From: a virus
Lineage: Duplodnaviria > Heunggongvirae > Uroviricota > Caudoviricetes
Virus record (IMG/VR): IMGVR_UViG_2634166457_000024
Coordinates: 1-12,685 of that record
DNA: 12,685 nucleotides
Direction: 5' to 3' (one strand)
Made by a program: the position numbers
In this document: positions 1 to 6,000 of the stretch, one piece after another
Layout: every line of letters starts with the position of its first letter
Position numbering within the stretch: position 1 is the first letter of the stretch

Positions 1-3000
1 CTATCGCGTTACCCTCTTTAACTGCCGCTCCGCCCATGCCTCCTCAATGTCAAACCGAACCACCAGCGTATCGTAAAAACGCTTCACTGATTTTTTCCAC
101 GTATCAAGAGTGATAGCGCTCGTCACTTTGCATATGGCATTAAACGCCTCTGTTGACGGCAATCTTTCATAGCCACGACCACCACAACGCTGGCAGTCTC
201 TGATAACAGGCATACCACGTTTTACCGACTCTTCACGATGAATGGCGACACCACGCCCACGGCAATCCTTACAGGCGGTGGAGACCTCACCCTTTCCCCC
301 GCATTCAGGACAGGCAACTTTTACCACTTCCCGGACTTTTTTCCATTCTTCCCAGTAAGACGGATACACGCCTTTTGTACACTTTGCCCATACTGGCGGC
401 TTGCCATCCGGATACTGGACCTTGTTTGTAAAAACTACGCTTTCAATAAATTTTTTCCCACCGCAACAAGGGCACTGTTTTTTACTCGCTGCACTGCGGG
501 CATAATCCTCAAAAGCGTACGAAGCCATAATACGCATCACTGCCGGTTTTATTTCTACCGGAAGTTTTCTCAACGCCGCCACGCGATCGCACCGACTGAG
601 TGCATAATCGGCCAGTAATTCTGTTGCCCGCGCCCTGTCATTCATACTGATGCCCATTTTCCCCAAGAACGCAGAAAATCCCATCTCAGCCCGGTTTTGT
701 GTCATACCCTGCGCAGCCATCACATCAGTGATGCTCAGTGCATCTTTTGACGTCGAGACGGATGCATCAGTCAGGCCTGGCGATTTTGGGGAATAATATT
801 TCGGTAAATCTTCCAGTTTCATTTTTGGACCTGCCCGTCATACATTATTTCGTAAATCTTCACGCCCAGCCGCCCACCAGGAACAGACTGACCGCGCACT
901 ATATTAATTTCATCAAACTGCTCGTCGTCTATGAGAAGTCCGGCATGCGTCAGCGCATCCAGTGGTGCTTTCAGGATATTGTCCAGGTCACGACGGCGCT
1001 TATCCGGTGGCTCTGCAATAATCCTGATCGCCAGTCTTCCGGACAGGTTTAATTTCAGCCGCTGCTGGCGAACAATTAGCGTCACAGCCCGGCGATAACG
1101 TTCTCCGGATTTTGATACAAAATATGTGCTGCCACGACGTCGCCAGTAAGTATTCACCGTCGGCGGATAAGGTAAAATAAACTCATGGCGCATCAGCGCA
1201 GCACCTCCTGCACCATTTTTTCAAACTTTCCAACTTTGGTTTCCAGCTCTGCCACACAATCAACGAGCTCATCCACCGCTTTTTGTGCGCGATGTTTCGC
1301 CTGCATCAGTTCCCTAAGCGCTGGCACCATATCCCGACGAATGGCATCTTTTGTTACACCTGTTTTTTCCAGTTGTTCCGCCTGTCGCAACATTTCCTGT
1401 GCCTGTTTACGTAGTTGTTCAGGGGTAAAAGTCATTGTCTGGTTGTTCAAAAGAAACGCTCCATCTTACTGCTGTCAGTTCGTTTGTTGCTGTATCTGCG
1501 CGGCTGGGGCTGCTGCATTGGGGTGGAAAGAATCTGTGCGCTTTCCTGGTCTACAGGCAGAAAATGTCCGTTAAAAAAACGCCGGTAAATCGTCCCCAGA
1601 GAACCGTTACGTTGTTTCGTGATATTGATTTCTGCGATGCCCCTGGCCTGCGTATCCGGGTTGTACACTTCATCCCTGTAAAGCATCAGAATGATGTCTG
1701 CATCCGCCTCTATTTCTCCGGAATTTTTCAGGTCCGAGTTCATGGGGCGTTTATTGGGTCTGGATTCCACGCCGCGGGAGAGCTGGCTAAGAGCAATCAG
1801 CGGAAAACCGCCGGATTTTGCCAGGCTTTTAAGTCCCTTTGAGATTTCCCCCACCGCAAGGTCGTGACGCCCCGTGCTGCGGGTTTTAATCAGGCCGAGG
1901 TAATCGACCACCACCAGCGCCGTTTCCGGGTGTTTCATCCGGTGGTGCTTCGTGGTTGCACATATCTCATCAATGGTCAGGTTTGCCTGGTCCACCATCC
2001 AGATATTACGCCCCGTGATTCGTCCCACGCCCTGCGAGAAACGCGCCCAGTCTTCATCTTCAAAACGGGCAACAGACTTAAGACGTGATACCGGCATTCC
2101 TCCAGCCGCAGACACCATACGTTCACCAATCTGGATGTTCGCCATCTCCATGGTGAACAGAAGCACACCATGCCCCTGCTCAGTCACCTTGTCGATGATG
2201 TCCAGCGCAAGTTCGGTTTTCCCCATCGAAGGACGGGCGGCAATGAATACCAGGTCTCCGGGCTCCATACCGCCCGTTTTTGCGTCCAGTTCATCAATAC
2301 CGGTCATCAGCGCCCTGGATTTCTCCAGTCCCTGATTGCGGCATTCAACACGGTCGACCACTTCCGGAAGGACATCATCAATGTGAACCGGCTGAATGAC
2401 GCCCTTTCCTGTCGACAGTGTGACCATCATGTTCTGCGCATCCTTCAGAGCATCCTCGGCTGCTTCACAGGTATGCGCATCACGTAAATTCTGTAATGCT
2501 TCAGTCAGTGTTTTTTCTGCATCGCGCAGTGCGGCATTTCGCCGCAGCGCTGCAACATAGTGCTCCAGTGAAGACTTCACCCAGGTTTTACGCCCGGTGT
2601 CGGTAATCACCGGGGCAAGTTCCGGCATCTCATTGCACAGCAGCACGGGGTCAATGACGCCGGATACGCGAGCCTGTCTGCAAATCCCCGCGTAAATATC
2701 CCTGTACTGACGCACGAAAAAGACATCCGCCGGAAGCGTGGCCAGAATATCCATCACTTCCGGATCAGCCCCACGCAGAAAAAACGCGCCAATCACGGCA
2801 CCTTCCAGGTCATCGTTACGCCATGCCGGATTTGTCGGTTTTGTCATGCTGCCACACCTCTGATATGCGCACGGTAGCTTTCCCAACCAAACACCAGGCA
2901 GTTACACCCACCATCAGTAACGCGATCCACAATCCGTTCACCAATGGATTCTTTAAGCTGTTCAAACGTCAGGTTGCTGATCAAAATTGTCGGTAAAACG

Positions 3001-6000
3001 CTTTCGTAACGCGCATTTATGATTTCCTGCAGGATGGTTATCTCTGTAGGCGTGCCGAACTGCACACCAACCTCATCGATGATCAGCAGGTCCAGTGAGG
3101 CGAAATGAGCGAGAACTTCATCCTCGGTACGCTCTGAATTGTGGCGCCAGGTATTTTTCACAGCGCGGGTCAGTCGCATAACATCCGTAATTTCGACGGT
3201 CGCCTGGTGGTGGCGAATAATATTTTTTGCCATTGATACAGCCAGATGATTTTTCCCGGTACCACAATTGCCAATCATGACCATGCTGGTACCCGCAGCA
3301 AGACACTTCTCCCATGAACCGGCATAGCGCCGACAAGCCTCAAGATTTCTCTGTGCGTCAGCATTCACCGCCTGATAATTCTCAAACTCGCAGTTCTGGA
3401 AGCGGCGGGCAATACCAGCCCTGTCGAGTAATTCATGAACTTTCAGGATGCGTAACGCCTCCTGTACCTGATCCAGCTCATTCGCAATGCAGGTCGGGCA
3501 ACCAGACACCCGTTTGATGGTTTCCCCACGAACATCTGGCCCTTTCAACACCAGACGTGTGTATTTCCCGTGTTTCTCACACTCAGCAGTATCCTCGCTT
3601 GTCAGCCAGTGTTCACAGCGCCACGGACGCTTCCCGACACGGGCAAACTGCATCTCCTCCTCCAGTTCCGCCCTGCGGTTGAGCAATTGCGCTTTGTCGT
3701 GTTGTGCGTAGTGTTTTTTTAACTGTTCAAACATTGTTCATCACCTCGAAAAATCACCAGTTGAAGTTCGTTGAACCGTAGTCCTGCTCACTGAATCCCG
3801 AGATCGGGAGGCCGGTAGTTCGCCCACCTCCGGGAGCGGCTGGCTGTTGCCAAGATTCCTCGAAGTGACGATCGGGTCCAAAGAACGTCGCAGCCTGCTT
3901 CACGAACTGTGTGCCGATATTTCCGGTAGCTCGTACCCAGGCGGCATACCGCTTCACGCCATCAAGCATGGTCTCCGGTTTTATTCCCTCCCTGATACGG
4001 GCTTTCCAGGCTTTGAAGGCTGCTGACTTGGAATTGCCACCAGCACGTTTGGGGTATTCCTGCCAGGCCTGTTCAGATTCCGGTGAATATTCCTGTCGGG
4101 CAGAACGCGCTGGTGCAGACGCGTCAGCGGATGCGCCAATAGTTGATTCATTGACTGGTTCTTTGACTGGTTCAAAAGAGTGACTGGTTCTGGGTGAATC
4201 TCCTGCACTACCCCCTGGTGCAACTCTTGCACCACCTGGTGAATTTGCTGCACTAGGTAGTGAATTATTTGCACTACCACCTGGTGAATCTTTTGCACCA
4301 TCAAGACGAAGAAGATAAATATTGCTCGAGTTGCCTTTTTCACCTTTCCGGGAAACTTTTTTTACCAGTCCCGATTCACAAAGAGCCGTAATATGATTCA
4401 TCACAGAACGTTTGCTAATCTCGCACTGATCAGCAATATGCTGATAGCTGGGCCAGCACTCGCCCTGATCGCTGGCATTATCAGCCAGCTTAATCAGAAC
4501 CAGTTTTCGCAACGGATTTCCCACGCGAATTTTCATCGCTTTCACCATCAGCTCCATGCTCATAACACACCTCCCAGGCGTTTAAACATTTTCCCGGACT
4601 GAAACACTGCCAGTGGATAGCTAAGGGTATGAGTGCGTCCCTGAACCTGACAGACAACCTTCTGGCTTTCTGTATTGACCAGACAAACCCGCAGAACGTG
4701 ACCGTTGCTGATGGTGAACCACTGCCCCACACAGGGGCAACGGTTGTATCGGTGATACAGGGAATTAACGACGCGGCGAATCATGGGTGCACCTCCCATT
4801 GATTACGGCGGAAAGCGGTGTGACTGAGGCTGATTTCTGCCTCATGGAATGCTTCAATGCAGCTCTCGTAGTACCGCATTGTGCGCAGACTTAACCCAAG
4901 CTGAAGCATCATCAGACCATCAAGGGTGATGTAATAACCATGCAGAGAATCACCATAGATGTGATAAGTACCCGGTATGAAATTGCGGATAAAAAATTCG
5001 CGCGAGCAGTTCAGATACTCGATTTTGTCGACGATGTTCTGGTGCATGCGCTTGAAATGACAGGCAACATGCAGAGAGAAAATAACGGCCTTGCCGTTGA
5101 CGGATTCGATTTTCAGGTATGGGGAAGTTGGGACTGTAGCCATGATGGCAGCCTCCGTATGCAATGGATAACTTCCACCACCGGAAACGCCAATTTCGCT
5201 GGTGGTGAACTGAGCAGGGTTGGCGTAACCGGCGCATACGGAAACCGGCGCACCTTTCGGTGCCCCCACCCAGCCCACCATAATTTGGGTATAGCTGAGT
5301 TGTAGCAACAAAAAAGACGCTAACGCGCCAATTGTCGCCGTATGCAATTCCAGGACGCCAATCCCGGCACCCGCTTTATAAGGTGCCTGAACAGTGTAAC
5401 GTCCCGAAATTGCAGAATCAATATTTAGGCTTGAAACATTCATATGCTTACTGGTATTTTTGTTGACGTTCTTGGATTCTTGGGCCTGCTTTATGCAGTT
5501 GCCTGTATCAACGTTGAGCGAGCCGGGTCACTACCCGGCTTTTTTTCACCGCTGCCAACCAATAACCTGAAATAACCCCATTTTCGGGTGATACCAGCGA
5601 GTCCCTCGCGGTTCTGCTTCCTCCATAACCCGATAAAAAGCAGCCATAAACGGTTCCACAGCAACAATTGCGCGACGTGATAACAATCCGTCCGGCGTCA
5701 TAAACTCGTGGGTATCTGTAGGAAGTTGATAAGCGTTCACCAGATTGCGGCATTTATCATCTGACAAACCGGTTTTTGCTTTCAGCTGGCGATATCCGGC
5801 ATAGCCCTCACGAATGTTGCCCTTTTTGATTTGCTCAACTGTTTCGGCAACATGGCTGACTTTTTCTTCCACCTGAGTGATCCGTTTCTGCTGACGAACG
5901 GCTTCAAGAGCCATCGCTGCAACCATTTCGATTTCGCTCATTGGCTTACGGATCTGTTCTTCCAGTTCGCGCCAGCGATCTACCAGGCGAGCAGTGAATT

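Follow-up and report, generated by a model that had tools for sequence, protein, structure and literature searches.

The stretch of DNA analyzed here, positions 1 to 12,685 of the IMG/VR virus record IMGVR_UViG_2634166457_000024 (Duplodnaviria; Heunggongvirae; Uroviricota; Caudoviricetes), is referred to below as the window (12,685 nucleotides, nt). It carries a head-to-tail chain of early genes that runs through replication genes to the antiterminator Q. All genes of the chain lie on the minus strand, and their order and junctions were read directly off the sequence. The chain begins with a 220-amino-acid (aa) open reading frame (ORF; 5443..4781), labeled "Ash family" in relatives, and a 74-aa ORF of unassigned function (4784..4560). 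These are followed by an O-like replication initiator gene (269 aa, 4563..3754; HTH_36/DnaD_N, phrog_270), a DnaC/IstB-like helicase loader gene (296 aa, 3734..2844; Pfam IstB_IS21, phrog_50) and the gene of a DnaB-like replicative helicase (2847..1447, 466 aa counted from ATG 2847; Pfam DnaB_C, E 1e-73). An 85-aa ORF (1450..1193; phrog_2565, E 6e-32), the gene of the RusA Holliday-junction resolvase (124 aa, 1193..819; Pfam RusA) and the Q antiterminator gene (273 aa, 822..1; Pfam Antiterm, E 2e-50) complete it. The Pfam and PHROG assignments are consistent with the recognized gene names. Two features of this chain are considered: the stop/start overlaps that join its genes, and an RNA module, composed of an IsrK-type small RNA (sRNA) and a C4-type antisense RNA, within the 220-aa ORF.

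At six of the seven junctions of the operon, the co-directional genes overlap by 4 nt or 1 nt. ATGA overlaps join the 220-aa and 74-aa ORFs (4784..4781), the 74-aa ORF and the O-like gene (4563..4560), the loader and helicase genes (2847..2844), and RusA and Q (822..819). The helicase stop codon overlaps the TTG start of the 85-aa ORF as TTGA (1450..1447), and the stop of the 85-aa ORF shares 1 nt with the RusA ATG in the string TGATG (1195..1191). Every one of these junctions had been listed in an earlier reading of the same DNA (hereafter the sequence-only reading), and every one is present in the sequence; the O-like/loader junction, a 19-nt gap without overlap, was absent from that list. 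A Shine-Dalgarno sequence lies within the upstream gene at six of the seven junctions; that of RusA is AGGAGGTG, upstream of its ATG, and that of the loader gene is GAGGTG. The exception is RusA/Q, where reading of the junction revealed no Shine-Dalgarno sequence ahead of the Q ATG. The string GGGAGGTG, which the same reading had singled out as shared by the 74-aa and O-like genes, does precede both (4797..4790, 5 nt ahead of the 74-aa start, and 4575..4568, 4 nt ahead of the O-like start), though its presence at the two genes is unremarkable, the string being near the full Shine-Dalgarno consensus.

The conservation of the junctions was assessed in 160 related viral contigs from IMG/VR, fetched via the two small proteins of the chain, and was counted where the same two genes adjoin. 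In that situation, retention ranged from 83% (RusA/Q ATGA, 10/12 relatives) to 100% (loader/helicase ATGA, 138/138), with the helicase/85-aa TTGA kept in 146 of 150 relatives, the 85-aa/RusA TGATG in 37 of 42 and the 74-aa/O-like ATGA in 21 of 21. The ATGA between the 220-aa and 74-aa ORFs was kept in 69 of 117 relatives; most of those without it have approximately 190-220 nt extra between these ORFs, and in the contexts printed this extra stretch has ATGA at both ends. The spacing between the O-like and loader genes is 1-19 nt in relatives, and an overlap was never seen there. In RefSeq entries for relatives, these overlaps are already part of the annotation. A lack of conservation in relatives, which the sequence-only reading had named as one way in which its claim could fail, was thus not borne out. 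In the related phage phiP27, 11 of 50 co-directional junctions (22%, our own count) overlap by 4 or 1 nt, and at this rate the probability of at least six overlaps in seven junctions is about 6e-4; the chain is therefore denser in overlaps than the genome average. In phage lambda, seven of the ten junctions from O to Q are 4-nt overlaps (O/P, P/ren, ninB/C, ninC/D, ninE/F, ninG/H, ninI/Q), and the run of overlaps, though dense, is usual for operons of this kind.

Overlaps of this type are usually taken to mean translational coupling, a view with experimental backing, and such coupling is plausible here. The overlaps could instead be a by-product of genome compaction and of the ease with which ATGA arises, with each gene initiated independently and no meaningful coupling. 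Several observations would suit this explanation: overlaps occur in ~15% of co-directional pairs in most prokaryote groups (PMC6728339) and in the above-mentioned 22% in phiP27, a separate Shine-Dalgarno sequence is present at six of the seven junctions, and the O-like/loader pair works across its 19-nt gap. However, junction types are retained while the flanking codons vary, the extra stretch between the 220-aa and 74-aa ORFs is itself bounded by ATGA in the contexts printed, and Q has no Shine-Dalgarno sequence to initiate from. Moreover, overlapping pairs were strictly coupled in 13 of 14 tested cases (Huber 2019, PMC6728339), and coupling at the AUGA of orf45/anrP, the homologous locus of the Gifsy-1 prophage, was demonstrated by stop-codon insertion (PMC4825925). 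We consider compaction without coupling unlikely, although it retains more weight than the other alternatives discussed below.

Both small ORFs of the chain are real coding sequence, as the sequence-only reading had proposed for them. The 74-aa ORF matches phrog_1153 over residues 1-73 of 74 (E 1e-39), and its variable sites by codon position number 22/23/46; those of the 85-aa ORF number 21/15/59. This predominance of third-position variation resembles that of recognized genes of the chain (loader 60/39/161, RusA 16/14/46). Pfam and NCBIfam searches with the two proteins returned nothing meaningful. The conserved start of the 85-aa ORF is TTG: approximately 45 relatives without an ATG at codon 6 retain the TTG, codons 2-5 change synonymously in these relatives, and RefSeq relatives annotate the 85-aa length. 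ATG 1435, the start used in the phiP27 RefSeq record, was rejected, with ACC, GCC, ATC, TTA or ATA at this position in the ~45 relatives; from this non-conserved ATG, the phiP27 record annotates the ORF as 80 aa. A 79-aa version of the 74-aa ORF, starting at ATG 4799, was also rejected, because the PHROG profile fits the 74-aa version and ATG 4799 is not conserved; this ATG sits in the Shine-Dalgarno sequence and is missing from the CAAGGAGG junction variants printed. The same phiP27 record (NC_003356.1) leaves a 217-nt stretch without an annotated coding sequence at 10116-10334, between the Ash/Rha ORF and the O-like gene, which corresponds to the position of the 74-aa ORF in the window.

The head of the chain has a different character. 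According to Rfam, two RNAs fall within codons 20-82 of the 220-aa ORF, on the same strand. They are preceded by promoter-like hexamers, TTGATT (5421..5416) and TACACT (5398..5393), separated by a 17-nt spacer (5393..5421 in all, minus strand), and this predicted promoter ends ~7 nt before the 5' end of IsrK. In an alignment of 49 distinct relatives (window 5129-5423 and the corresponding loci), which underlies the co-variation and frame counts given below, all 12 hexamer positions are invariant, and the sequence upstream of the conserved promoter block is unrelated between relatives. A promoter scan did not list this element, which scores 8/12 and falls under the threshold of the scan. The isrK promoter has been shown experimentally in Gifsy-1 (PMC4825925). 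The IsrK-type sRNA (5386..5310; RF01394, 61.2 bits vs a gathering score of 50) ends in a terminator hairpin with a U-run (5329..5316), the helix of which is only 72% paired across relatives. The C4-type antisense RNA (5285..5198) matches RF01695 over its full length, 1-87, with 80.7 bits vs a gathering score of 45. Its helices 5-7 are 100% paired, eight pairs are changed on both sides, and its 3' end, CACCACCA, is present in the sequence.

The C4 RNA carries a specificity loop, b2 (5244..5234), and a single-stranded element, a2 (5226..5220). Copies of their targets lie in IsrK (a1, 5361..5355; b1, 5345..5338) and again downstream of C4 (a3, 5193..5187; b3, 5162..5152), all on the minus strand. 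The two specificity elements thus match targets both upstream and downstream, as expected of a C4 RNA, and the downstream target coincides with a ribosome binding site: b3 overlies the GGAGG Shine-Dalgarno sequence (5156..5152) of a nested start codon, ATG 5143. Across the 49 relatives, all four pairings are maintained by compensatory change. The a1-a2 pairing is 96% paired with 6/7 pairs co-varying, b1-b2 is 100% paired with 7/8 pairs co-varying, b2-b3 is 96.7% paired with 7/11 pairs changed on both sides, and a2-a3 is 97% paired and co-varying; controls in which the partner was slid by 1-3 columns gave ~40% pairing. Among these sequences, 11 b-loop types and seven a types occur in 20 combinations, with the matching targets always changed in step. 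The a and b types look like exchangeable specificities, as between phages P1 and P7, and their variety suggests that phiP27-like and Shiga toxin (Stx)-type prophages have many RNA immunities that do not cross-react with one another. In the contig L062, the IsrK/C4 block was found in two different upstream contexts, suggesting two modules. A hairpin downstream of the nested start (5098..5084) was considered as an attenuator; it is terminator-like, and was discarded as it is not conserved in relatives.

The nested start opens a 120-aa Rha-like gene (4781..5143, minus strand) with a Phage_pRha domain, in frame with the 220-aa ORF. In the 49 relatives, the alignment columns of its ATG and Shine-Dalgarno sequence show little or no variation, and variable sites after ATG 5143 number 37/31/74 by codon position, which makes it the first gene in the chain with protein-level constraint. 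The 220-aa ORF starts upstream of the sRNA promoter, spans both RNA genes and enters this Rha-like part. Over its first 100 codons, variable sites are distributed evenly (52/59/54), and there is therefore no amino-acid constraint; this part is conserved as RNA and DNA. An AUG at 5281, in the C4 region, is the equivalent of the Gifsy-1 orf45 start; it is in frame with ATG 5143 over 138 nt with no stop.

It could be argued that the first 100 codons are purely RNA genes, never translated, and that the frame is open by chance. The missing amino-acid constraint, the lack of a Shine-Dalgarno sequence at ATG 5443 in the window and phage 2851, which carries the RNAs without the long frame, would agree with this. 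Yet the long frame has no stops in 49 of 49 distinct sequences, whereas the other two frames have 15 and 13 stop columns. Its segment lengths are 277, 280 or 283, and three independent 3-nt indels were seen. Furthermore, 11 of 28 upstream contexts have an in-frame ATG six codons ahead of the conserved block, with a GGAGG-type Shine-Dalgarno sequence, and this ATG overlaps, as ATGA, the stop of an upstream gene of 70-366 codons. The same long frame is also kept in the satellite P4. Purely untranslated RNA genes are, in our assessment, somewhat less likely even than uncoupled compaction, and we favor an RNA module that is also crossed by a translated frame.

The opposite position, that the 220-aa ORF encodes an ordinary Ash plus Rha regulatory protein and that the Rfam matches are incidental, agrees with the annotation. 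The ORF matches Pfam Phage_ASH (PF10554; 63 bits vs a cut-off of 26, E 4e-17) as well as Rha, the frame is open throughout relatives, and the RefSeq relatives examined carry the label "ash family protein", with neither RNA annotated. Nevertheless, the RNA scores are far over their gathering thresholds, the stems and the four inter-element pairings co-vary, and variation in the 49 relatives lacks a third-codon-position bias; by this test, no purifying selection on the amino-acid sequence was seen in the Phage_ASH region. The family itself points in the same direction: the P4 match to PF10554 is an obsolete "cI protein" ORF lying over the CI RNA (P4 8168-8584, minus strand), whereas P4 epsilon, which is also named Ash (PMC8628076), matches PF25738 and not PF10554. 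"Ash family protein" (PF10554) labels mark the IsrK and C4 RNA genes (5144-5443 of the window, minus strand), not a constrained protein domain, and an ordinary protein here is improbable. The designation of the 220-aa ORF as the cII-position gene in the sequence-only reading also has to be given up. The Pfam search with this ORF returned only Phage_ASH and Rha and no CII-type match, and the ORF is not beside cro; an opposite-strand BssS-family gene and a 249-aa Rha/Ant gene lie between the two, and the ORF follows the latter. Finally, sequencing or assembly error in the window, the other way in which that reading could have failed, is excluded as the source of the overlaps by identical junctions in >100 independent contigs, phiP27, Stx phages and E. 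coli chromosomes.

The coupled chain with an RNA module at its head can be compared with several known systems. The lambda genes from O to Q have been described as a "chain of interlinked genes" (Kröger & Hobom 1982, as cited in a passage of PMC7166090), and the overlap chain is in this respect already known for lambdoid phages. The window shares with lambda the operon position from replication to Q, the 4-nt ATGA overlaps and the iterons within the initiator gene. Unlike lambda, it has a DnaC-like loader and a phage-encoded DnaB-like helicase in place of P and one small ORF plus RusA in place of ten nin genes, and one of its junctions uses a TTG start. As to the repeats, the O-like gene holds five direct repeats of 21-24 nt at 4186-4298 (core TGGTGAAT..TGCAC). 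By analogy with lambda O, these are probably iterons of the origin; at the protein level, they give the O-like protein a repetitive, SPGG-rich linker.

A close parallel to the head of the chain is found in P4, where IsrK and C4 matches occur in the same order as in the window. In the P4 sequence, an ORF of 65 codons is nested in a longer frame that measures 197-199 codons depending on which of three ATGs is used; we take these to be kil and eta, for which Forti et al. 1999 reportedly gave the same sizes. According to that work, the start of eta reportedly lies ahead of the constitutive immunity promoter, kil is said to be the first translated gene after that promoter and to be controlled by the CI RNA, and translation of eta or kil reportedly prevents Rho-dependent termination. 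In both P4 and the window, the long frame starts upstream of the RNA promoter, and the downstream target contains the Shine-Dalgarno sequence of the nested gene; the two have one and the same start region, GGAGGCTGCCATCATGGCTACA. IsrK would then be equivalent to seqA, C4 to the CI RNA, the 220-aa ORF to the eta position and the Rha-like gene to the kil position. The two differ in what follows: P4 has the 65-aa kil, then epsilon and the alpha primase, whereas the window has a 120-aa Rha-like nested gene and then, via ATGA overlaps, lambdoid replication genes and Q. P4 also has 77 nt extra between its first AUG and the CI RNA.

Gifsy-1, a lambdoid prophage of Salmonella, has an IsrK sRNA with its terminator and a C4-like RNA, STnc1160, over which lies a short translated ORF with the same AUUAUGG start, joined by AUGA to an anti-repressor-type gene (PMC4825925). 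In contrast to the window, where the frame of AUG 5281 runs into the nested gene, orf45 stops at its AUGA overlap with anrP; antQ lies upstream of isrK in Gifsy-1, whereas Q is downstream in the same chain in the window. The immI operon of P1 and P7 (c4-icd-ant; Citron & Schuster 1990, summarized in a passage of PMC8198154) resembles the window in that, as outlined there, the C4 antisense RNA and its target derive from the same transcript, the a and b elements are complementary to sites up- and downstream, a gene set of anti-repressor type is controlled, and specificity variants confer heteroimmunity. P1 is not lambdoid, and icd and ant occupy the downstream place that replication genes and Q hold in the window. 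P1 is not known to have a long eta-like frame. The occurrence of IsrK and C4 in lambdoid prophages, as in P4, was noted earlier (PMC3632133), and the RNA module heading the chain adds one more example to a type already known.

Taken with these parallels, the region is likely to be the early-right operon of a phiP27-like lambdoid prophage, in which a coupled head-to-tail chain is headed by an RNA immunity module of the P4/P1 type. From the junctions and their conservation, the two RNAs with their co-varying pairings, the open frame and the missing amino-acid constraint, all observed here, we infer how the chain may be coupled, how Rho polarity may act on it, how lysogenic and lytic states may differ and how the RNA switch may be carried on to the replication genes and Q. 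Ribosomes ending one gene would probably restart at the ATGA, TGATG or TTGA, aided by the Shine-Dalgarno sequence in the upstream gene, and the chain would be largely one translational unit; Q is probably most dependent on such restart, because it has no Shine-Dalgarno sequence. The conserved promoter would give rise to IsrK and, by read-through, to the C4 antisense RNA, which could pair with its target copies in IsrK (a1, b1) and upstream of ATG 5143 (a3, b3). In a lysogen, C4 made from the internal promoter may block the nested ribosome binding site and leave the chain free of ribosomes, and Rho-dependent termination would remove stray transcripts. Once the prophage is induced, early-promoter transcripts would be translated from the upstream start, with ribosomes crossing the RNA genes, and translation and transcription could continue down the chain to Q.

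Several points weigh against this interpretation. Strong Shine-Dalgarno sequences at most junctions permit independent initiation, and the chain need not act as a unit; the 19-nt O-like/loader gap is a further argument of this kind. At ATG 5443, the lack of a Shine-Dalgarno sequence and of an abutting gene, the upstream one ending 100 nt away, makes the efficiency of long-frame translation in this phage uncertain. In phage 2851, antA is preceded by a C4 module that has no long open frame; the open frame is therefore particular to this lineage and P4. Of the eta/kil mechanism reported for P4, the ORF sizes are the part checked against the P4 sequence. In Gifsy-1, moreover, IsrK activates translation and does not serve simply as a decoy, and regulation could therefore have a different sign. 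The "fixed stoichiometry" that the sequence-only reading had deduced from the overlaps does not survive these considerations, given the strong Shine-Dalgarno sites, a coupling strength that differs between gene pairs (PMC6728339) and the O-like/loader genes, which do not overlap; of its interpretation, the overlaps and small ORFs stand, and the fixed stoichiometry and the cII label do not.

As stated, the finding of overlaps is of minor importance: the packing of lambdoid early genes was already known, and what is added is the confirmation of two small hypothetical genes. Of more consequence would be an RNA switch wired directly, in this phage group, into the chain from replication to Q, which would make RNA-level control of induction testable in Stx-phage relatives. 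We tentatively hypothesize, as a possibility short of an even chance, that in phiP27-like and many Stx-type phages a P4-type IsrK/C4 switch at the head of a coupled chain gates the replication genes and Q by polarity and forms a second, RNA-based layer of immunity. If this is true, the switch could influence induction, Shiga-toxin release and cross-talk with P4-like satellites.

Opposite ATG 5443, on the plus strand, the window holds a candidate antisense sRNA of ~80 nt (5431-5548). It has promoter-like hexamers with a TG extension (TTGAAA-18-TATTTT, 5431-5460) and a strong terminator hairpin (5520-5541) followed by T7, and its end falls on the stop codon of the 249-aa Rha/Ant gene. Three sequence variants of this candidate, with the first hairpin changed, are conserved among relatives. 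A comparison with lambda oop found no sequence similarity, and the analogy is positional only.

Further upstream, the BssS-family gene (83 aa, 6373-6624, plus strand; Pfam E 1e-15, phrog_10846, a biofilm regulator family) has the cro-like gene (6981..6709) on one side and the 249-aa Rha/Ant gene on the other. It resembles an accessory ("moron") gene and is accompanied by a terminator-like hairpin at 6653-6681. The best match in an E. coli chromosome spans 91% of nt 1-5443, with an identity of only 91%; this exact prophage is therefore not in the complete-genome set searched. The window is delimited by the stop codon of Q (1-3) and the stop codon of the integrase gene (12683-12685), and the integrase (437 aa) and excisionase (78 aa) are equal in length to their phiP27 counterparts.

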